From positions 1,197 to 65,196 of the forward strand of contig CACWQS010000011.1 in the NCBI GenBank assembly GCA_902763155.1: 64,000 nucleotides of DNA, in the 5' to 3' direction. How positions within the stretch are numbered: the stretch's first letter is position 1; each line of letters starts with the position of its first letter. The translations under genes and the position numbers were made by a program. The notes under the pieces were generated by a model. It was not told where the DNA came from. It worked only from the letters and a program-made list of their open reading frames with translations, and ran no database searches. Positions 5,226 through 57,626 of this stretch are shown here, in pieces. The DNA is from an uncultured Pseudomonadota bacterium (GTDB lineage: Bacteria; Pseudomonadota; Alphaproteobacteria; RF32; CAG-239).

Positions 5226-5460
5226 AAACTTTACCTATACGAAGAAAGATTTTTTCGCCACACGCACATGAAGAACGAAAAAACTCAGAGAATGAGATTG
5301 ATAGAAAAAGGTTTTTTGTCGCAGTGTACAAAATAGTACATAAATAAAGCAAAAAACTCAGAGAATGAGGTTAATACGCAGAAAGTCTTTTTGCGCGGTG
5401 TACAAAATAGTACATAAGCAAAAAGACTTTCAAGTAGTAACCCATTATATGAGTTTTAAA
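5226..5460. repeat. Intergenic structured repeat cluster (about 2.5 units) between convergent genes. The terminal unit 5357-5460 abuts the nifJ stop.
   Basis: A perfect 14-bp stem (5381-5394 / 5418-5431) has a loop carrying TGTAC-AAAATA-GTACA. A second unit at 5284-5356 has the stem GTTTTTTGTC/GCAAAAAAC. A degenerate third hairpin lies at about 5240-5283. Confidence 0.85.
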
Positions 5461-8400
5461 TTATTTGTATTGAGCGAGATGCTCCAACAATGCGCGTTTT
5501 TCATCAACATTAGCCTGCGCCTTACCCAAAAGCATTTCATAACGCTCTGGATTGGCCTTGTTGACAACTTGGAAACGGGTTTCACTCGCCATAAATTCGG
5601 AGAGAGGCTTGCTCGGCGCTTTCGAATCGAGCGTCAATGGTGCAATACCTGCCTTCATATTATCCGGATTATAGCGATAGAGCGGCCAAGATCCGCTTTC
5701 CACCGCATTCTTTTGGTGGCTCAAACCATCAGCCATATTAAGTCCTTGGTTAATACATGGGCAATAAGCGATAATAATCGACGGACCATCATAAGCCTCG
5801 GCTTCATTAAATGCCTTGATTGTCTGCATATCGTTAGCGCCCATTGCAACTTGCGCCACATAAACATTACCGTAAGACATGGCAATCATACCCAAATCTT
5901 TCTTCGGCAATTCTTTACCGGCTGTCGCAAATTTCGCCGAAGCTCCCATCGGTGTCGCTTTCGATTGTTGACCGCCGGTATTAGAATAAACTCCGGTATC
6001 AACTACCAAAATATTAACGTTGCGACCGCTGGCAATAGCGTGGTCAAGACCGCCGAAACCGATATCATAAGCCCAACCATCACCGCCGATAATCCATACC
6101 GACTTCTTAATTAAATAATCGGCAACTTCGTTCAAATGCTTAGCTTCTTCGCTGTTCATCGTTGCCAATTTAGCCCGCAAAGCCATCACATTATCACGTT
6201 GCGCATCAATTTCGATGTCGTTTGTTTGCGGATTTGTCAGCAATTTATCTGCAATATCGCCGAGTTCATTTTTCAAACCTTCGAGCAAAGATTTTGCCAT
6301 TTCTTTCCCTTGATCAATGGAAAGACGCATACCCAAACCAAACTCTGCATTATCCTCAAACAACGAGTTAGCCCAAGCCGGTCCATGTCCCTTTTCATCT
6401 TTGCAATACGGAGTTGTCGGCAAATTACCCGAATAAATCGAAGAACAACCGGTAGCATTGGCAACCACCATTCTATCGCCGAATAATTGCGTTAACAGCT
6501 TAATATACGGGGTTTCGCCGCAACCGGCACAAGCACCGGAAAACTCAAACAACGGTTGAATCATTTGCGTTGTTTTCGGTAAATTCTTCACCACATCGGT
6601 CCGCTTAACATATGGTAATGTTTCAAAGAATTTCCAATTTGCCTTTTCGGTTTCCAAATGATTTTCGATATGGTCCATATTGATGGCGTGCAATTCCGGA
6701 TTTTCTTTGTTTTTAGCCGGACAAGCACTTACACAAACGCCGCAACCGGTACAATCTTCCGGAGAAATCTGCAAAATAAATTGCTTACCGGCAAATTCCT
6801 TACCCTTGTAATCAGCGTGCTTCAAAGTCGCCGGAGCACCCGCTAATTGGGCCTCATCGGCAACTTTCATTCTTATAACCCCATGCGGACAAACAATCGA
6901 GCATTTACCGCATTGAATACAGGTATTTGCATCCCATACCGGTACTTCGGTTGCCACACAGCGCTTTTCATATTGCGTCGTTGCTGTCGGCCATGTACCG
7001 TCAACAACTTCTTGCAATTCCGAGGTTGTAACATCATCACCTTTATCGGCAATCAACTTCGCTGTTAAACCTTGAACAAATTTCGGAGCATCTGCCGGAA
7101 CCGCCGCCAAGCGATGGAATGTAGAAGTAACATGATCCGGATATTTCACTTCAAACAAATGCGCCAAAGAAGCATCAACTGCGGCAAAGTTCTTTTGTAC
7201 CACCGCATCGCCTTTCTTGGAATACGTCTTCTTAATTGCGGCTTTAATCTGTGCAATCGCCTCATCTTTCGGTAAAATATTAGAGATTGCAAAGAAGCAC
7301 GTCTGCATTACGGTATTGATACGTTGTCCCATACCGGTTGCCCGTGCCACTTCAACAGCGTTAATCGTATAAAATTTGAGGTGCTTAGCTAAAATTTGCT
7401 CTTGCACTTCAATCGGCAAATGATCCCAAACTTCATCGGCCTTATAAGGCGCGTTTAACAAGAAAGTAGCCCCATCTTTGGCAATGTGTAAAATATCAAC
7501 TTTCTTCATAAATTGGAACTGGTGGCAAGCCACAAAATCTGCCTTATTGATTAAATAAGCACTGCGAATCGGATTATCCGAGAAACGCAAGTGTGAAGTT
7601 GTCATCGAACCGGATTTACGCGAATCGTAAACGAAATATCCCTGTCCGTATTTACCGGCATCTTCAGCGATAATCTTAATTGAGTTTTTGTTGGCGCCAA
7701 CCGTTCCGTCCGCACCTAAACCGAAGAATACGGCGCGCACCACATCATCTGGCTCAACATCAAACGATGCATCATAAGCCAACGACTTATAAGTCAAATC
7801 ATCTTCAATACCAACCGTAAAGCCGTTAATCGGAGCGCTTGCAACCGCATTGTCAAACACCGCCTTAGCCATAGCCGGTGTAAATTCTTTAGAAGACAGA
7901 CCATAGCGTCCTCCATAAATTTTCGGCAAGAAAGCAATTTTACCGTTACTGAATGCTTGTGACAAAGCGGTGACCACATCAAGATAAAGCGGCTCACCGA
8001 GCGAACCGGATTCTTTAGTCCTATCCAAAACAGAAATAACTTTTGCTGTCTTAGGCAAAGCTTTTAAGAAAGATTCTGTCGGGAACGGACGATATAAATG
8101 AACTTTCAAAACGCCTAATTTTGCTCCGTGTGCATTCAGGTATTCAATGGTTTCTTCTACCGTTTCGGCACCGGAACCCATTACCACAACCACGTTTTCG
8201 GCATCTTCAGCGCCGACATAGTCAACAACATGATATTGACGACCGGTAATGGCGGCAAACTTATCCATTTCCTCTTGAACAATGCCTTCTACTTTTTCAT
8301 AATACGGATTCGCCGCTTCACGACCTTGGAAAAACACATCCGGATTCTGTGCCGTACCGCGAATTACAGGTTTTTCCGGACGCAAAGCATGCTTAGCGTT

Positions 8401-11922: not shown

Positions 11923-11962
11923 AGTTTACGCAATTTACAAAACTATCCAAACAACATTAAAA

Positions 11963-12303
11963 TCCTAAAGAATGAGGTTGATACGCAGTTCCACTCTTTG
12001 CGCGATATACAAAAATAGTACATAAGAATTAAGACTAAAAAAATCCGGAGAATGAGGTTGATAGAAAAAGGTTTTTTGTCGCGGTGTACAGAAAATAGTA
12101 CATAAGAATTAAGACTAAAAAAATCCGGAGAATGAGGTTGATAGAAAAAGGTTTTTTGTCGCGGTGTACAAAAATAGTACATAAGAATTAAGACTAAAAA
12201 ACTCAGAGAATGAGGTTAATACGAAGAAAGTCTTTTTGCGTAGTGTACAAAAAGGGTACATAAGCGAAAAGACTTTCAAGTAGTAACCCATCATACGAGT
12301 TTT
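11963..12303. repeat. Tandem array of four units of the same repeat family. The first three are about 80 bp and the last, about 100 bp, abuts the fadL-like stop.
   Basis: Units start at 11963, 12044, 12124 and 12203. The 12044 and 12124 units are near-identical (80-bp period). The 12203-12303 unit is near-identical to 5357-5460. Confidence 0.9.
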
Positions 12304-13581
12304 TTAGAAATTATAAGTCAATCCGAAGGAAAATACCTTAACCGAATTGGAATAATCTGCCGTTACATGACGTCCTTTGTTACCGGTATAACGCGTATCC
12401 AAATGCGCATCATGCGCTTTAATATAGGTAAATCCGGCATCAAAGCTCAAATTATCATTATATTTATAACCTAAACCAACTGAATACCAAATGCGGTCAG
12501 AATCCGGAATACGCGGCGTACGATGTTGCACCCGAACGGCACTTTGGTCATAGGCTAAACCCAAACGCAATTTCCATTGTTCATCAAGCATATAGCTGGT
12601 ACCGATTGCATAAAAATTGGTATCACGCCAATGCTCATGAACGCGCGAAATTTCCATACCGGAATAAGCGCCTTCTCTGCTCACATAAACCAAATCATGG
12701 AAAGAGCTCCAGAACACACGTTGATATTCCGCCATTATCGCTAAACGTTCATTGATGTCATGATAGATACCCATTGACAGCATAGCCGGCGTGTTCAATT
12801 TTGCACTGATATCACCGTTTAACAAAGTGTGATACGGTTCAGCCTGTGCCGAAACAGAAGAGTTCATATCGCCTTTAATTTTGTGTTTGATTTCACTGCG
12901 ATAACCAATACCAACACGTGTTGCCGGTGTAAATTCATACATAGCTCCCAGCTGATACCCAAAATCTAAAGCATCGCCATCTGCCGCCACATGATTAACC
13001 GGTATATAACTACCTGATTGCGTCGGTAACATAGAGCTGTTGGTCAAATGCGCCCACACATATTGAATTTGCAAACCGGCACCAAGCGAGAGCTTGTCTG
13101 TTGCCTTATATGCCGCCATTGGTGTAAAGGTAGCAGTTTTAACATCAGAAGTAATACCATGGTCACCACCTGCCCAGTCACGGTCATATTTAGTAATCAT
13201 ACCGAATGGGCTGTTACCGGCCAAAGCAATAAACAATTTATCATTTACCTGATGCGAAATTGTAAAATATGGTGAAACAGCCGCATGAACCACATTTTGC
13301 GCATCGGCACCGCGTTCGCCTGTTGCAACATTGCGTACATTTTTCGCTTCTGCTTTTGGCGCAATATATGTTGCTCCTCCGGAAAATTGCGTTCCTTTGA
13401 TGCGTGTCAAACCGGCTACGTTATAATATGCATAGGCATTATTTTCGGCACCTGCCGTTGCACCGGCATAAGCATTACCTTGTGCGGCAGCCGATTGCTC
13501 TCTTAAGTGGAAACCGGCAGCCATTGCTGTTGATGAGAGCAAAACCGTGCTCAAAGCAACCAATACTAAACTTTTTTTCAT
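12304..13581 (-). CDS. Outer-membrane hydrophobic-compound/long-chain fatty acid transporter, FadL/OmpP1/TodX family
   Basis: 425 aa with a signal peptide ending AMA, the N-terminal AGFHLREQSAAAQGNAYAG hatch motif and a C-terminal aromatic residue (YNF). Confidence 0.85.
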   Translation of the reverse strand: MKKSLVLVALSTVLLSSTAMAAGFHLREQSAAAQGNAYAGATAGAENNAYAYYNVAGLTRIKGTQFSGGATYIAPKAEAKNVRNVATGERGADAQNVVHAAVSPYFTISHQVNDKLFIALAGNSPFGMITKYDRDWAGGDHGITSDVKTATFTPMAAYKATDKLSLGAGLQIQYVWAHLTNSSMLPTQSGSYIPVNHVAADGDALDFGYQLGAMYEFTPATRVGIGYRSEIKHKIKGDMNSSVSAQAEPYHTLLNGDISAKLNTPAMLSMGIYHDINERLAIMAEYQRVFWSSFHDLVYVSREGAYSGMEISRVHEHWRDTNFYAIGTSYMLDEQWKLRLGLAYDQSAVRVQHRTPRIPDSDRIWYSVGLGYKYNDNLSFDAGFTYIKAHDAHLDTRYTGNKGRHVTADYSNSVKVFSFGLTYNF

Positions 13582-21132: not shown

Positions 21133-22347
21133 ATGCAAAACACCCCGAAATCTCTACGTCTCCACATCACTATTTTCGGGCGCACCAATGCCGGAAAATC
21201 CAGCTTTTTAAATTTGCTTACCGGTCAGCAAACCGCCATTACTTCACCTGTTGCCGGCACCACCACCGATGTGGTGGAAAAGGCTCAGGAACTGCCGCCT
21301 TTAGGCCCGGTTTTATGGCTTGATACCGCCGGATATGACGATAATACTTCTCTCTCTGCCGAGCGCTTAAATGCTACCGAAAAAACATTTGCCCGCACCG
21401 ATATTGCTATTTTGGTTTGTGTCGGCGATAATATCGGCGCTAAGGAACAGCAAATTATCGAAAAATTGAAACAGCACAATATTCCATTGATTAAAGTTTA
21501 TAACCAAGCCGATAAATATAAAATTACCCAAACCGACGGCATCGTTGTTAATTCTACCGATACGTCTGAACGCGATAAAATATTAAACGAACTGACTACG
21601 GCTCTGATTAAACTTTGTCCCGAAGATTATATCAGCACCCGCCCCCTTTTGGGCGACTTATTGCCCCCGAATAGCACGACCGTAATGATTATTCCCATTG
21701 ATTATGAAGCTCCGAAAGGGCGCCTGATTTTACCGCAAGTAATGGCGATTCGTGATTGCCTCGACCACGAGCAAAATATCCTTATTGTCAAAGAAGATAA
21801 TTATACCGCAACTTTGCAAAACCTCAAAACTCCTCCGGCGCTTGTTGTATGCGATTCGCAAGTCGTCGATAAAATGGTGGCGCAAACTCCACCTGATATT
21901 CCTTGCACAACGTTTTCGATTCTTATGGCACGTTTTAAGGGAAATTTAGCCACTATGGTCGAAGGCGCGGCAATAATCAACCATTTACAAGATAATGATA
22001 AGATTCTGATTGCCGAATCTTGCACTCATCATGCTGCCGACGATGATATCGGACGAGTTAAAATTCCTAATTTATTAAGAAATAAAACCGGCAAAAATCT
22101 GCAAATTGATTACGTCAGCGGCTGTGATTTTGCTACCAATTTAGCCGATTACAAATTGGTTATCCAATGCGGCGGTTGTATGGTTAATCGTAGGCAAATT
22201 TTATCTCGCATCCAGCAGTGCCAATCTGCCGGAGTTGCCATCACCAACTACGGTGTTTGTATATCAGAACTTAAAGGTGTTCTTGAACGCGTCCTCTCAC
22301 CATTTCCGAACATTTTGCAAATATATCAAAAAACTAAAAACTTATAA
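21133..22347 (+). CDS. hydF: [FeFe]-hydrogenase H-cluster maturation GTPase
   Basis: G-domain (GRTNAGKSS, DTAGYDD, NQADK) plus PIDxxAPKGRLILPQV and the C-terminal cluster motif ESCTHH...GRVKIP...IQCGGC. Colinear with Thermotoga HydF as I recall it. Confidence 0.85.
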   Translation: MQNTPKSLRLHITIFGRTNAGKSSFLNLLTGQQTAITSPVAGTTTDVVEKAQELPPLGPVLWLDTAGYDDNTSLSAERLNATEKTFARTDIAILVCVGDNIGAKEQQIIEKLKQHNIPLIKVYNQADKYKITQTDGIVVNSTDTSERDKILNELTTALIKLCPEDYISTRPLLGDLLPPNSTTVMIIPIDYEAPKGRLILPQVMAIRDCLDHEQNILIVKEDNYTATLQNLKTPPALVVCDSQVVDKMVAQTPPDIPCTTFSILMARFKGNLATMVEGAAIINHLQDNDKILIAESCTHHAADDDIGRVKIPNLLRNKTGKNLQIDYVSGCDFATNLADYKLVIQCGGCMVNRRQILSRIQQCQSAGVAITNYGVCISELKGVLERVLSPFPNILQIYQKTKNL

Positions 22348-22389
22348 CAAAAAATCCGTTGAATTTACTATATTTCAACGGATTTTTTA
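22348..22389. terminator. Bidirectional intrinsic terminator between hydF and the tatA-like gene
   Basis: AAAATCCGTTGAA (22351-22363) pairs with TTCAACGGATTTT (22374-22386), flanked by A-run and T-run. Confidence 0.8.
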
Positions 22390-22391
22390 CT

Positions 22392-35474: not shown

Positions 35475-35837
35475 AACTCGAAAAATACTTATGAAAAAAG
35501 GATTCTTCCAAACAGAAAAATCCTTTTCAAATCAAACTCCGATAAAATTCGGATAACGTGTGTGATTGCGAAGCGGAATTTTTGACGACATATAGGTACA
35601 GAGATATAGTTTCAGCTAGCACCTATAAATACGAGAAAAGGATTCTTCCAAACAGAAAAATCCTTTTCAAATCCTATAAATACGAGAAAAGGATTCTTCC
35701 AAACAGAAAAATCCTTTTCAAATCAAACTCTGATAAAATTCGGATAACGTGTGTGATTGCGAAGTGGAATTTTTGACGACGTGTACAAAGAAGTACACGA
35801 GGAAAAAATTTCCAAGCAAGCACCAGTTATACGAATT
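35475..35837. repeat. Mosaic of three repeat modules: a 51-bp hairpin unit x3, a 56-bp unit x2 and the GTAC-palindrome terminal unit abutting the hup stop
   Basis: GAAAAGGATT-N14-AATCCTTTTC hairpins at about 35493-35528, 35635-35668 and 35686-35719. Unit AAACTCyGATAAAATTCGGATAACGTGTGTGATTGCGAAGyGGAATTTTTGACGAC at 35533-35588 and 35724-35779. Palindrome GTGTACAAAGAAGTACAC at 35781-35798. Confidence 0.9.
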
Positions 35838-36116
35838 TTACTTCTTGTTGACAACGTCTTGTAAAGTCTTACCCGCTTTAAATTTAGCTACTTTACGAGC
35901 AGGAACTTTTACTGTCTGACGTGTGCGCGGATTAATAGCAGTTGTAGCAGCTCTCTTAGAGGTCGAGAATGTTCCGAAACCAACCAGACGAACATCATTA
36001 CCCGATTTTAATGTGTTGCATACAGAAGTAATGAAAGCATCTAAAGCTTTAGCGCTGTCTGTTTGGGTTAAACCGGAATTATCGGCAATGCTCTTAATCA
36101 ATTCACTTTTATTCAT
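35838..36116 (-). CDS. hup: DNA-binding protein HU
   Basis: 92 aa. MNKSELIKSIA...GFGTF...RNPRTRQTVKVPARKVAKFKAGK. Confidence 0.9.
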   Translation of the reverse strand: MNKSELIKSIADNSGLTQTDSAKALDAFITSVCNTLKSGNDVRLVGFGTFSTSKRAATTAINPRTRQTVKVPARKVAKFKAGKTLQDVVNKK

Positions 36117-47610: not shown

Positions 47611-48093
47611 GTGAACCGCGAAGAAAAATCAGAATTGCTGAGCTTGTTAAACGATGTCTTCTCAAAGGCTGAATCTGTTGTTCTGGCTGAATATAAAGGC
47701 TTGACCGTAGCAGAAGCAGATGCTTTAAGAAATAAGATTCGTGAAGCCGGCGCTTCTATCAGAGTTACTAAAAACCGTATTGCAAAATTAGCCGTTAAAG
47801 GCACAAACTTTGAAAACTTGGCAGATATGTTTAAGGGACCGATTATCATGGCTTATGCCGAAGACCCGATTTCTGCTTGCAAAGCATGTGTTGAATACGC
47901 TAAAGAAAACGAAAAATTGGTGATTGTCGGCGGTGCTTTGAGCGATAAGGCTCTTACATTGGCTGAAATCAAACAATTAGCTTCTATTCCGTCGATGGAT
48001 GAGCTCAGAGCGAAACTCATCGGCTTGTTGCAAGCTCCTGCTGCTAAGATGGCTCGCGTTTGCAAAGCATATAGCGAGAAGGAGGCTGCCTAG
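47611..48093 (+). CDS. rplJ: 50S ribosomal protein L10
   Basis: GTG start preceded by GGAGAC. 160 aa including VVLAEYKGLTVAEADALR. Confidence 0.9.
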   Translation: MNREEKSELLSLLNDVFSKAESVVLAEYKGLTVAEADALRNKIREAGASIRVTKNRIAKLAVKGTNFENLADMFKGPIIMAYAEDPISACKACVEYAKENEKLVIVGGALSDKALTLAEIKQLASIPSMDELRAKLIGLLQAPAAKMARVCKAYSEKEAA

Positions 48094-48180
48094 TAGGGTT
48101 TCCATTTTATACACTTCTTACTTGTCATTTTTTCGCTTATGTACCTTTTCGTACACCGCGTTCAAAAATAACTTCGTAAT
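48094..48180 (+). repeat. Diverged copy of the GTAC-palindrome element in the rplJ-rplL spacer
   Basis: CTTATGTACCTTTTCGTACACCGCG at 48136-48160 matches the loop consensus of the nifJ and fadL-like copies in mRNA sense. It begins 42 nt after the rplJ stop, the same spacing as after nifJ. Confidence 0.7.
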
Positions 48181-48272
48181 TAGTTGTCTAAAATGAAAAC
48201 ATTATAATTCTAGGTTTGTTTGTAAACGGTTTTTAATATTGTAATTGGATTTAATTTTATTGGAGAAAAACA

Positions 48273-48644: not shown

Positions 48645-48678
48645 TTTTCACATTTAGAAATTTACTTTTCACAAAACG

Positions 48679-48709
48679 CTCGCAAGATACCTTTCTTGCG
48701 AGTTTTTTT
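48679..48709 (+). terminator. Intrinsic terminator after rplL
   Basis: CTCGCAAGA (48679-48687) pairs with TCTTGCGAG (48694-48702), followed by TTTTTTT. Confidence 0.85.
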
Positions 48710-48719
48710 ATTTTTATAA

Positions 48720-48993
48720 CGTCATTACGAGCTTTTGAGAATAAGAAAGGTTATGCTCCCCCACGTCATTACGAGCTTGAAAAATTAGTAGCGGATTGCG
48801 CCAGCAAACCGCCATATTTCGGAGCCTTTAGCGACGCAAATATGTAATTTTTCTTCGCGTGGTAATCCAGAACAAAGTAGCTATACCATACTAGATTGCT
48901 TCGTGAAGTTTGGTGACTTCTTCTTATCGCTTGCGCTCTGAAGAAGCGTCTTGCTGAAGCAATCCGCTCTCACCAAACAAACTCGCAATGACG
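48720..48993 (+). mobile_element. MITE-like non-autonomous element, copy L (with duplicated left terminal repeat)
   Basis: CGTCATTACGAGCTT at 48720-48734 and again at 48764-48778. The inverted partner CTCGCAATGACG lies at 48982-48993. No ORF. The internal core is shared with copy R. Confidence 0.75.
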
Positions 48994-49003
48994 TTGCGGA
49001 CAC

Positions 49004-49063: not shown

Positions 49064-49432
49064 TTACTCAGCCACCTTCTCTTTCTCATCACGGAAGATA
49101 TCAAGCATCCATTCCCTCATCACATGCTTGCATTCTTTATTAGCAAATAGTGACTGGAAGAAATAGATAGCAAGAAGCACCACAATAGGTGCTCCTATAC
49201 CTTCACAAGCAAATGCCGAAATGACAAAAGCTGATACAATGAAGATAAGCGCCAGTTTATTTCTAAACAAGGTAGCATAGAAAGTCATGGCTGTGATGAT
49301 CAATGCAACAAGCAGTCTTGCTGCCTGATCTGCAATGTTTTCTTTAAAAGTTGCCGCCAACATGAAAATCTCGGCAACTGCACAAAGTGCAACAAGAAGC
49401 ACACTGAATACTGGGGTTTCATTCTGTTTCAT
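49064..49432 (-). CDS. Hypothetical small membrane protein (3-4 TM) inside a MITE-bracketed cassette
   Basis: 122-aa ORF with its own hairpin plus T-run downstream. By eye its codon choice (CAG, GTG, CTT/CTG) differs from neighbouring genes. No family recognised. Confidence 0.45.
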   Translation of the reverse strand: MKQNETPVFSVLLVALCAVAEIFMLAATFKENIADQAARLLVALIITAMTFYATLFRNKLALIFIVSAFVISAFACEGIGAPIVVLLAIYFFQSLFANKECKHVMREWMLDIFRDEKEKVAE

Positions 49433-49690
49433 AATTTTCTGTTTTTATTTGTTAATACTATATAATCCAACCAAAAACAAAAGTTATTATGACCATCCAT
49501 TTGCGTTTATGCTAAAAGCACACAACAAACAGCGTCTCTTAAGCCCCAAAACATAATTGGTAAACCTAATCGCAAACATAATAACTTTTGAATCATAGTT
49601 ATTATAGCCTAAATTTGTCCAAAACGCAAGTATAAATTTTTCATCTTCTCCTTTGCTCATAATCCTTAAGCAACTGCAATATTTTTTCAA

Positions 49691-49911
49691 CGTCATTATG
49701 AGCTATTGAAAATGGTAAGCCTATGAAATAGGCTGATTTTTCCAAGCTTAAGGCGCAAGAAAAATCCATTTTCAATTCGAGTGATAATCCAGTATGATAT
49801 AGCTAATTTTTTCTGGATAGCCACGCGAATTAAGGCGTAATTTTTGTATCGCTAAGGCTTGCAAAAATTGTCTTCTCCGAAGACTCTTCGCCTTAAAAGC
49901 TCGCTATGACG
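49691..49911 (-). mobile_element. MITE-like non-autonomous element, copy R (inverted relative to copy L)
   Basis: CGTCATTATGAGCT at 49691-49704 and GCTCGCTATGACG at 49899-49911. The reverse complement of its core (CGCGTGGCTATCCAGAAAAAATTAGCTATATCATACTGGATT) aligns with 48857-48897 of copy L. Confidence 0.75.
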
Positions 49912-49924
49912 TATTTATTTTCTC

Positions 49925-57555: not shown

Positions 57556-57568
57556 TATACTTCTCTTA

Positions 57569-57610
57569 CAAAAAATCTCTTACCGCAATCAAGCGATAAG
57601 AGATTTTTTT
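57569..57610. terminator. Bidirectional intrinsic terminator between the hypothetical gene and galU
   Basis: AATCTCTTACCGC (57574-57586) pairs with GCGATAAGAGATT (57593-57605) with one mismatch, flanked by A-run and T-run. Confidence 0.75.
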
Positions 57611-57626
57611 ATTACTTTTATTGCAA

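Follow-up and report, generated by a model that had tools for sequence, protein, structure and literature searches.

Why do unrelated genes in one bacterial genome fragment end in the same kind of palindrome? The fragment, referred to below as the window, is a 64,000-nt stretch of DNA from an uncultured alphaproteobacterium (GTDB RF32; CAG-239; assembly GCA_902763155.1, contig CACWQS010000011.1, positions 1,197 to 65,196), and the element in question is a hairpin with a GTAC mini-palindrome at its apex, found directly behind nifJ, a fadL-like gene, hup and rplJ. A first-pass annotation, made from the letters alone, had preferred to see in it an RNA structure owed to selection alone and no canonical terminator. 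We found instead that the copies act as a dispersed repeat family, most members of which have a terminator-like foot. The interpretation that we favor, with slightly better than even confidence, is that of a dispersed, non-coding palindromic repeat of uncultured gut and rumen Alphaproteobacteria, which resembles both MITEs (miniature transposable elements with inverted repeats) and terminators and is probably transcribed as 3′ untranslated region (UTR). The family was undescribed before, and its positional rule is stricter than in its analogues.

The repeat unit and its copies in the window

Each full copy is a single hairpin of about 110 nt that starts at a stop codon, and the window holds four of them together with at least five partial units in tandem arrays (Table 1). 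Pfam upheld the identities of the four upstream genes (PFOR for nifJ, Toluene_X/FadL, HU for hup and L10 for rplJ). The hairpin comprises about 45 bp in three tiers: the stop codon (TAA or TAG) and an A-run are followed by an outer stem with a conserved pyrimidine–pyrimidine internal loop, a hypervariable inner stem of 13–14 bp and the invariant apex CTTATGTAC-N6-8-GTACAC-YGCG, after which come the return strands and a T-run. The sense (minus) strand of the nifJ copy reads TAA-ttt-AAAACTCATATAATGGGTTACTACTTG-GAAAGTCTTTTTGC-TTATGTAC-TATTTT-GTACAC-CGC-GCAAAAAGACTTTC-TGCGTATTAACCTCATTCTCTGAGTTTTTT, with the stop codon at 5461–5463, the outer stem, a perfect 14-bp inner stem (5381–5394/5418–5431), the apex CTTATGTAC-TATTTT-GTACAC-CGC and a U6 foot. 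In the fadL copy the stop codon (TAA, 12304–12306) is itself paired within the basal stem, and UUUUUU closes the full hairpin in both the nifJ and the fadL copies. The apex of the hup copy is a perfect palindrome, CGTGTAC-TTCTTT-GTACACG. The rplJ copy, which lies inside an operon, runs from the TAG at 48091–48093 through a hairpin reaching to about 48215 and has the tail GTTTGTTTG, without a clean U-run.

The coordinates and sequences that the first-pass annotation had given were accurate, including those of the 14-bp stem. The nifJ and fadL copies, described there as near-identical, share 89% identity, and the diverged copies reported behind hup and rplJ have the common layout in a different sequence. 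The distances from the stop codon to CTTATGTAC are indeed 42 (nifJ), 42 (rplJ), 39 (fadL) and 36 nt (hup), corresponding to 46, 46, 43 and 40 nt to TGTAC, and all of the copies in the window are in the sense of the upstream gene. Three points had to be revised, of which that on the U-tract is taken up below. What had been taken for a tail of about 40 nt after the stop codon is really the 5′ arm of the outer stem, which pairs with ...TTCGTATTAACCTCATTCTCTGAGTTTTTT, and the element is longer than had been noted. Furthermore, there are at least nine units rather than four, the partial units behind nifJ and fadL and a degenerate unit behind hup having been missed.

The motif GTGTAC-N4-10-GTACA occurs eight times in the window, whereas 0.01 occurrences are expected by chance. 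Full copies fold with z-scores from −10 to −4.6 overall, about −10 for the nifJ and fadL copies and about −5 for those behind hup and rplJ. When a covariance model (CM) built from nine copies was scanned over the window with filters off, exactly four full copies and the partial units were returned; the scores on the reverse strand were far lower (48, 37, 24 and 16 bits), and the orientation of the element is therefore well defined. A second model, built from 87 sequences, gave an identical census and revealed no further class of copies.

Compensatory changes, which had been proposed earlier on the basis of four copies, were upheld in an alignment of 80 distinct sequences. Standard pairs occupied 95.3% of cells, a value somewhat inflated by the fitting of the alignment to the model, compared to 71.6% with shuffled partners and 28–48% when partners were slid by 1–3 columns; the slid controls show that the effect far exceeds the bias. 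Double-sided changes were found in 32 of the 36 pairs, and the covariation score was 0.62 as against 0.17. The inner stem is hypervariable and perfectly compensated (for example, GAAAGTCTTTTTGC, TAAGCGGGTTGGC, TATGAGCTCGCGC and TTCGGCCGCTTGC). By contrast, several unpaired or semi-paired positions are conserved, namely the apex, the junction CTACTTG / CGTAT and the pyrimidine–pyrimidine loop (5′ UAU / 3′ CUC). Although the apex was part of the retrieval pattern, it was also intact in copies found independently of that pattern (hup and loci L123, L234 and L235; L-numbers denote related loci or strains fetched for comparison outside the window). Wobble pairs are rare. G-U pairs outnumber A-C pairs by 81 to 44, or by 62 to 44 without one apex pair (p ~0.1), which is a weak sign that the sense strand is the strand that pairs; the complementarity could be upheld at the level of RNA or of single-stranded DNA, or palindrome correction could keep it.

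In the partial units, which retain the apex and the 3′ half, the 5′ arm is absent and folding is weak (z −0.7 and −1.5). Those of the fadL array lie at 12119–12192, 12039–12118 and 11959–12038, and strain L144 has one unit fewer. A conserved half unit of the form ...CGCG-(A/G)AAAAAACCTTTTTCTAT-YAGCCTCATTCTCCGAGTTTTTT was seen in several species on the downstream side of the first full copy, with many unrelated genes as carriers (window 5279–5347 and 12039–12192; L121 5000–5060; L152, L221, L209, L179, L169, L224 and L234). Behind hup, a 51-nt unit with a canonical terminator hairpin (GAAAAGGATT..AATCCTTTT) is present three times (35482–35723), and the degenerate copy of the element lies within a 191-nt duplication. 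The spacer between hup and yceD varies from 173 to 523 nt among strains with an identical HU protein (L134–L141).

Table 1. Full and partial units of the repeat in the window, with strand and scores (z, folding z-score; CM, covariance-model score)
Feature	Positions	Strand	Scores
Full copy after nifJ (PFOR)	5348..5463	-	fold -41.9 kcal/mol, z -9.96, CM 120.1 bits
Second, partial unit after the nifJ copy: apex and 3′ half (GACAAAAAACCTTTTTCTATCAATCTCATTCTCTGAGTTTTTT), without 5′ arm	5279..5347	-	partial CM match 5321-5343, z -1.5
Full copy after the fadL-like outer-membrane transporter gene	12193..12306	-	fold -41.6 kcal/mol, z -9.85, CM 124.6 bits
Three tandem partial units of ~80 nt (apex and 3′ half) after the fadL copy	11959..12192	-	weak/partial CM matches
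Diverged full copy after hup (HU), stop codon TAA 35838-35840	35730..35840	-	z -5.05, CM 85.6 bits
Rest of the hup 3′ array: canonical terminator hairpins and one degenerate copy of the element (~35545-35621)	35482..35729	-	
Diverged full copy in the rplJ-rplL spacer	48091..48223	+	z -4.59, CM 87.3 bits

Position, stop codons and carrier genes

A strict pattern that included the 3′-arm motif was run on 185,579 GTDB species representatives and on metagenome contigs. It matched three loci among the representatives, in the metagenome-assembled genome (MAG) 'Alphaproteobacteria bacterium RGIG4780' from roe-deer reticulum and in two 'uncultured Azospirillaceae' MAGs, and none in the metagenome contigs. 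These copies lie behind rpoA, ftsH (three full tandem copies) and gyrA, and each starts at the stop codon. A relaxed pattern comprising the 5′ junction and the apex only (ACTTG-N11-15-CTTATGTAC-N5-8-GTACAC), and thus holding no gene information, matched 83 loci in metagenome contigs, chiefly from rumen and human gut, nearly all of which carry full-length model matches of 50–117 bits. The relaxed pattern had no match in IMG/VR viral contigs, where a loose apex pattern gave chance single matches only, among the matches listed. Pattern scan and CM together yielded 91 distinct full copies from related MAGs and from rumen and human-gut metagenomes, a sample in which the apex and the 5′ junction are fixed by the retrieval pattern, orthologous sites inflate the counts and CM E-values are rough.

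Classification of the 91 copies gave 74 leading copies at a sense stop codon, 11 non-leading array members, one copy at a contig edge and five exceptions. In 74 of the 79 interpretable leading copies, a sense open reading frame (ORF) ends 30–52 nt (mode 43) before TGTAC, and the foot of the hairpin lies 0–9 nt after the stop codon; folding free energies of leading copies range from −27 to −49 kcal/mol. About 6% of the intergenic combinations of position and orientation in the window would qualify by chance, which gives P ~1e-83 for 74 of 79, a value to be read with the non-independence of orthologous sites in mind, about 44 gene families being involved. Among the exceptions, one copy has a 40-nt spacer, two copies have no gene end near, and one site, shared by two strains, is oriented antisense to the sole gene end in its vicinity. 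The sense orientation and fixed spacing described by the first-pass annotation were thus upheld in a far larger sample that had been retrieved without gene context. At four metagenome loci and at a pepF site (L234), the ORF runs on for 13 nt within the element, up to a conserved TAA or TAG in the arm (context TATAAT, TCTAAT or TCTAG), which adds about four residues.

The choice of stop codon was also restricted. At 71 distinct element sites, we counted 57 TAA, 14 TAG and no TGA, whereas 391 other long ORFs in the same DNA end in TAA (253), TAG (72) or TGA (66; Fisher p = 1e-5). Because TAG stays at its background frequency while TGA is absent, a preference linked to expression fails as the cause, and the TA of the stop codon therefore belongs to the unit or to its target.

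The carriers fall into about 44 gene families (Pfam, one representative per family). They include genes for transcription and translation (NusG at eight loci in several species, RpoA, RpoC, Rho, CarD, EF-Tu, EF-Ts, IleRS, PNPase and Era), ribosomal proteins (L1, L9, L10, L7/L12 and S4, as well as L30, recognized from translated sequence), chaperones, nucleoid and topology proteins (DnaK, HU, FtsH, GyrA and GyrB), central metabolism (PFOR, PPDK, FeFe-hydrogenase, FabG, AccD and ThyA) and the envelope (OmpA-like, another beta-barrel outer-membrane protein (OMP) and FadL). RecR, MutL, GcrA, an OmpR-type regulator, an ABC-F ATPase, PepF, a TraG/VirD4 coupling protein and DUF1150 complete the list. 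Judged by gene identity, the earlier suggestion that the carriers are highly expressed housekeeping genes appears broadly right, and the presence of GcrA fits an alphaproteobacterial host. In the window, rplL is followed 45 nt past its stop codon by a plain terminator (CTCGCAAGATACCTTTCTTGCGAGTTTTTTT, 48645–48708) without a repeat; a related rumen genome (L158) has a repeat there.

A sample independent of the element was obtained by fetching loci through FadL homologues. A sister species with 80% FadL identity had no copy in 12 kb, and its fadL 3′ spacer was merely 41 nt long. GCA_036418035.1 had one copy in 12.5 kb, behind pepF, where the ORF ends at the in-arm TAA. In 21 kb of a strain from Hadza human gut, a single copy was present; it lies upstream of a pilin-like gene and breaks the position rule. 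The region around the pilin-like gene (L235 4440–5771; N-terminus MIEMLGVLAIIAVLSIGGIAGYSKAM), which contains this sole clearly misplaced copy, differs from that in the otherwise collinear Hadza-gut strains L236 and L238. The overall density is about one copy per 15–20 kb, the four in the 64-kb window included. The species of the window was met again, at 92–100% identity, in assemblies from ENA, JGI, Logan and NCBI (GCA_045605045.1). Many metagenome contigs (L139, L142, L143, L145, L146 and L226) terminate in or just past repeat arrays; short-read assemblies of these organisms break at the repeat family.

Consistent with the earlier statement that this is not a described RNA family, Rfam 15 gave no match across the whole window at gathering thresholds, and E-value scans of two copies returned just generic hairpin (miRNA precursor) matches of at most 29 bits, against cut-offs of at least 43. 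Blastn (word 11) with a full copy gave no hit at E ≤ 0.01 in 5,426 complete Escherichia coli genomes, which contain ERIC, REP, BIME and RU-3, and no similarity in 72,556 plasmids and 50,697 phage records. No association of the element with tRNA or tmRNA genes was found.

Dispersal, inheritance and termination

Both spread to unrelated genes and inheritance at orthologous sites are evident. Identity of 88% or more, the 'free' inner stem included, was measured for ten copy pairs whose carrier genes differ (for example, AccD/OMP/Pgk-like, 96–97%; EF-Tu/L1, 93%; RecR/OmpA, 93%; and the nifJ/fadL pair of the window). On the other hand, the element is retained at nusG, rpoA, tuf, thyA and tsf across species whose adjacent coding DNA is 79–93% identical, and at such retained sites its own identity is similar to or somewhat below that of the flanking coding DNA. 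Replacement was seen at rplI, where loci L182 and L207 match at 90% as far as the stop codon and have the native terminator AACCCTCGTATGAAAATGCGAGGGTTTTT in common, but between stop codon and terminator they hold different subfamilies (49% identity), and L182 has an older degenerate fragment as well. In L207 (1018–1190), the stem of the native terminator, which lies 35 nt further downstream, recurs in the outer arms of the rplI repeat (AAACCCTCG / CGAGGGTTT), and the core appears to sit within a copy of that terminator.

Within arrays, the copy nearest the stop codon is usually the best preserved (90, 80 and 52 bits in L197; 110 and 59 bits in L167), and the number of units varies by strain, from one to three behind hup and three or four behind fadL. 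Half units often start exactly at GTACAC following a ...TTTGT tail; such junctions would fit slippage between the U-rich loop and the U-tract.

The element also shows several features of a MITE: it is small (<300 bp), non-coding, multicopy and dispersed at non-homologous sites, with terminal inverted repeats (AAAACTCATATAATGGGTTACTAC and the reverse complement of GTATTAACCTCATTCTCTGAGTTTT), and the whole unit is palindromic. A second, unrelated MITE-like repeat was noticed in the window, with units of about 225 nt at 48768–48997 and 49690–49915 and inverted ends ACGTCATTACGAGC ... GCTCGCAATGACGT; its two copies flank an ORF on the minus strand (49064–49432), and related GTCATTCTTGACC..GGTCGAGAATC hairpins adjoin GTAC elements in L219, L201 and L235.

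The spacer between rplJ and rplL provides the only clean presence/absence polymorphism. The element of the window is missing there in some strains of the same species, including L127 (96.5% identical to the window) and L133, the alleles being GCA-TAA-AACGG (empty) and GCC-TAG-[131 nt]-TAA-ACGG (filled). A recent insertion or excision was nevertheless rejected, because the last 13 rplJ codons exist as two haplotypes with 11 synonymous differences and no amino-acid change, while the downstream DNA is identical. The haplotypes (window 48050–48093; L127 2909–2952; L133 677–720) show perfect linkage to whether the repeat is there or not, and they occur in shuffled combination with the strain backgrounds. 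Since a block of about 70 nt of synonymous divergence is linked to the element, this is an old polymorphism moved by homologous recombination. The filled and empty junctions, like the exclusion of TGA, are compatible with a duplication of TA.

Regarding termination, the first-pass annotation had stated that no U-tract follows the stem. This is correct for the inner stem alone, but the full hairpin ends in T4-7 at 56 of the 71 distinct sites, nifJ and fadL among them, and a T-run of at least four is lacking at the other 15. The foot, AAAA(A)TCCG...CGGATTTTT or AAAACTCG...CGAGTTTTT, is that of plain bidirectional terminators in the window; thus, AAAATCCG...CGGATTTTT equals the foot of the ordinary terminator AAAAAATCCGTTGAA...TTCAACGGATTTTTT at 22346–22391. 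Because the feet match, the unit looks like a normal terminator whose loop has been swapped for a large structured insert, and many copies are likely to terminate transcription, as far as this anatomy can tell. A human-gut subfamily lacks the T-run and has a separate canonical terminator 10–40 nt further on. No difference in U-tract strength was seen between co-directional and convergent downstream genes, as judged by a crude gene-context heuristic. An interrupted stem of 45 bp is beyond what the promoter/terminator scan can represent, and the scan passed over the element; an internal promoter-like match (TTGAAA-N18-TATTTT) was at chance level. Two ordinary bidirectional terminators of the window, at 22346–22391 (AAAAAATCCGTTGAA..TTCAACGGATTTTTTA) and 57568–57611 (AAAAAATCTCTTA..TAAGAGATTTTTTT), have the same A-tract/clamp/T-tract foot, and the former begins 1 nt past a stop codon.

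Interpretation and comparison with known elements

In the mechanism that we propose, the element would make up the initial ~110 nt of the 3′ UTR in the upstream mRNA and would fold into a long hairpin with an A-tract/GC-clamp/U-tract foot like that of ordinary bidirectional terminators. Most copies would then terminate transcription and/or cap the mRNA 3′ end against exonucleases. Since the 5′ arm starts at the stop codon, inside the mRNA channel of the ribosome, a terminating ribosome would have to melt the foot, and folding would be coupled to translation. New copies may arise when a duplicative process targets the stop codon's TA, slippage at microhomology shared by the U-rich loop and the U-tract may lengthen the arrays, and alleles may pass between strains by homologous recombination.

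Several observations weigh against this reading of the family as a mobile, terminator-like 3′-UTR repeat. The rplJ–rplL polymorphism reflects allelic recombination and not a fresh insertion or excision. No target-site duplication was shown, the mirrored 3′ TA being present in about half of the sites, which is close to chance, and the roughly 0.7 Mb of loci showed neither an autonomous partner nor a transposase. Behind the hup and rplI copies, as in the human-gut subfamily, a separate canonical terminator comes next, so that the role conserved across the family is not termination. The G-U/A-C asymmetry is slight, and the pairing may be DNA-level. Finally, the placement is left unexplained by either of two simple accounts: a TA-duplicating transposase explains the absence of TGA but not the single orientation or the choice among 3′-UTR TAs, whereas selection on RNA function accounts for the orientation but not for young copies that are already at stop codons with almost none elsewhere. 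A strand-specific homing to the translation stop of highly transcribed genes could account for the placement, although we regard this as doubtful. The route might be insertion into the non-template strand exposed just past the terminating ribosome, or another transcription- or translation-coupled or RNA-templated process. If homing were true, neither random insertion followed by selection nor ordinary TA-targeted transposition would explain the pattern, and stop-codon homing would be a way of choosing targets that is new among mobile elements of bacteria.

The main rival explanation, which we consider possible without expecting it to be right, is that the element is a dedicated cis-regulatory 3′-UTR RNA motif of a clade-wide post-transcriptional regulon. 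A trans-acting protein or RNase would read the apex and the internal loops and thereby act on mRNAs that encode the transcription and translation machinery, at the level of stability, processing or translation termination; selection would keep the copies, and duplication or gene conversion would be incidental. Such a role would suit the strict sense orientation, the enrichment of translation and transcription genes among the carriers, the covarying stems with conserved unpaired nucleotides, and the apex TGTAC-N6-8-GTACAC, invariant even in the copies found without the pattern. It would also suit the orthologous retention across 79–93% flank identity (nusG in eight loci, rpoA, tuf and thyA) and the fact that in several lineages the element precedes a separate terminator and so is not merely a terminator. 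By contrast, near-identical copies behind unrelated genes, the 'free' inner stem included, and swaps of subfamily indicate repeat turnover, and decaying partial units pile up downstream. MutL, RecR, TraG and PepF would be improbable members of such a regulon, and G-U pairs, at 2.8% of cells, are too few to be typical of selected RNA helices. We know of no factor that binds the apex. This explanation is not incompatible with a repeat origin.

An element acting at the DNA level, either as a single-stranded hairpin for an HUH/Y1-type enzyme (REP/RAYT- or IS200/IS605-like) or a recombinase, or as a duplex site, behind heavily transcribed genes, to which a nucleoid or topology protein binds, seems quite improbable. 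The scarcity of wobble pairs, nearly all pairs being Watson–Crick, is what such an element would predict, and a small conserved hairpin with conserved flanking bases resembles the DNA hairpins recognized by transposases or recombinases. A single-strand mechanism on the non-template strand could moreover give the fixed orientation and the bias to highly transcribed genes, and BIMEs, which bind gyrase and IHF (PMC3184786), are a precedent. The anatomy makes the hairpin version less likely, since the unit is 110 nt rather than 20–40 nt long and has no GTAG/CGTC tag of the REP superfamilies (PMC3733652). Furthermore, no associated enzyme gene was seen in the loci, and the copies on both strands of the window track the direction of the genes and not that of replication. 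The spacer between the GTAC half-sites, which varies from 6 to 8 nt, argues against a duplex site of fixed geometry, and a protein site with fixed spacing was ruled out.

Ordinary intrinsic terminators that are alike by chance or convergence would have the A-tract/hairpin/U-tract layout at gene ends, but this idea has virtually no prospect of being correct and is refuted by the conservation of sequence across the family: the similarity extends over about 110 nt with common unpaired motifs in about 44 gene families and many genomes, CM scores are 50–125 bits as against less than 17 bits for real terminators of the window, and motif counts lie far above those in shuffled sequence.

It has long been suspected that small interspersed repeats (REP, ERIC, Correia and SPRITE, for example) help to shape the 3′ ends of mRNAs, but their loose positional rules blur function and selfish spread. 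The present family follows an almost absolute rule (TAA or TAG, sense orientation, core highly expressed genes) across many species of an uncultured gut and rumen lineage. The rule makes two questions testable, namely whether a hairpin that starts at the stop codon couples translation termination to the formation or stability of the transcript 3′ end, and by which route a repeat reaches stop codons. In addition, the covariance model built here can annotate the repeat and mark gene 3′ ends in these MAGs.

Integron attC sites follow cassette ORFs in an integrase-associated array and have R''/R' core sites (RYYYAAC...GTTRRRY) with a variable centre. Such sites were ruled out here, the carriers being core housekeeping genes in normal synteny and the unit having an invariant centre and A/T-run ends. 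The earlier suggestion of a REP-like element was right about the dispersed-repeat behavior and wrong about the anatomy. Like the present family, REP, BIME and REPIN elements are extragenic palindromes downstream of genes, often between convergent genes and clustered, with compensatory changes, and REPs affect mRNA stability (PMC3184786, PMC3733652). However, REP units are G+C-rich, 20–40 nt long, tagged with GTAG or CGTC and linked to RAYTs, none of which was seen here; with a unit of ~110 nt, 33–45% G+C, A-/T-run ends and no conserved GTAG/CGTC, REP/REPIN was ruled out on anatomy. Correia/NEMIS elements of Neisseria are closer in size (100–155 nt), and their long inverted repeats form mRNA hairpins that are processed by RNase III, and they alter the expression of neighboring genes (PMC2229807). 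They differ from the present family in having 26-bp terminal inverted repeats and a TA duplication, and in lying in either orientation, mostly upstream of or between genes, with no stop-codon rule.

Ribosome termination structures (RTSs), defined by Chemla et al. (2020) as stable mRNA structure just past stop codons and proposed to insulate against re-initiation (PMC7518266), are a positional class to which 74 of the 79 leading copies conform by the position of the foot. An RTS is, however, a statistical property of unrelated local sequences, whereas the element described here is a homologous dispersed repeat family.

ERIC/IRU elements (127 bp) are likewise imperfect palindromes of about 110–130 nt. 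In Yersinia, ERICs are co-transcribed with flanking genes and have orientation-dependent, ribosome-sensitive effects on these mRNAs, and ribosomes terminating beside an ERIC have been proposed to hinder its folding and thereby to alter the fate of the mRNA (PMC2229807). By contrast with the present family, about 94% of which lies at a stop codon and in one orientation, ERICs occur in both orientations and at many distances; there is no sequence similarity, as judged from the E. coli genomes searched, and a TA duplication is not demonstrable in our family. De Gregorio et al. reportedly noted in 2005 that ERICs next to stop codons share one orientation and that TA is duplicated.

The pneumococcal SPRITE, described in 2011, is about 105 nt long and AT-rich, with AAAA...TTTT ends and a long duplex followed by a U-rich tract; it is enriched near the 3′ ends of coding sequences and between convergent genes, is not known to have a target-site duplication or matching insertion sequence, and was proposed to be co-opted as a terminator (PMC3049150). 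The present family resembles it in size, A-run and T-run ends, duplex with U-tract, location at coding-sequence 3′ ends, and in that no target-site duplication or parent insertion sequence was found. It belongs to another phylum and has no sequence relation to SPRITE, which has about 30 copies and an 18-bp duplex instead of a three-tier hairpin of ~45 bp with an invariant apex, and for which stop-codon abutment, strict sense orientation and exclusion of TGA are not reported. By analogy, SPRITE and the ERICs of Yersinia appear to be the closest functional analogues of the family described here.

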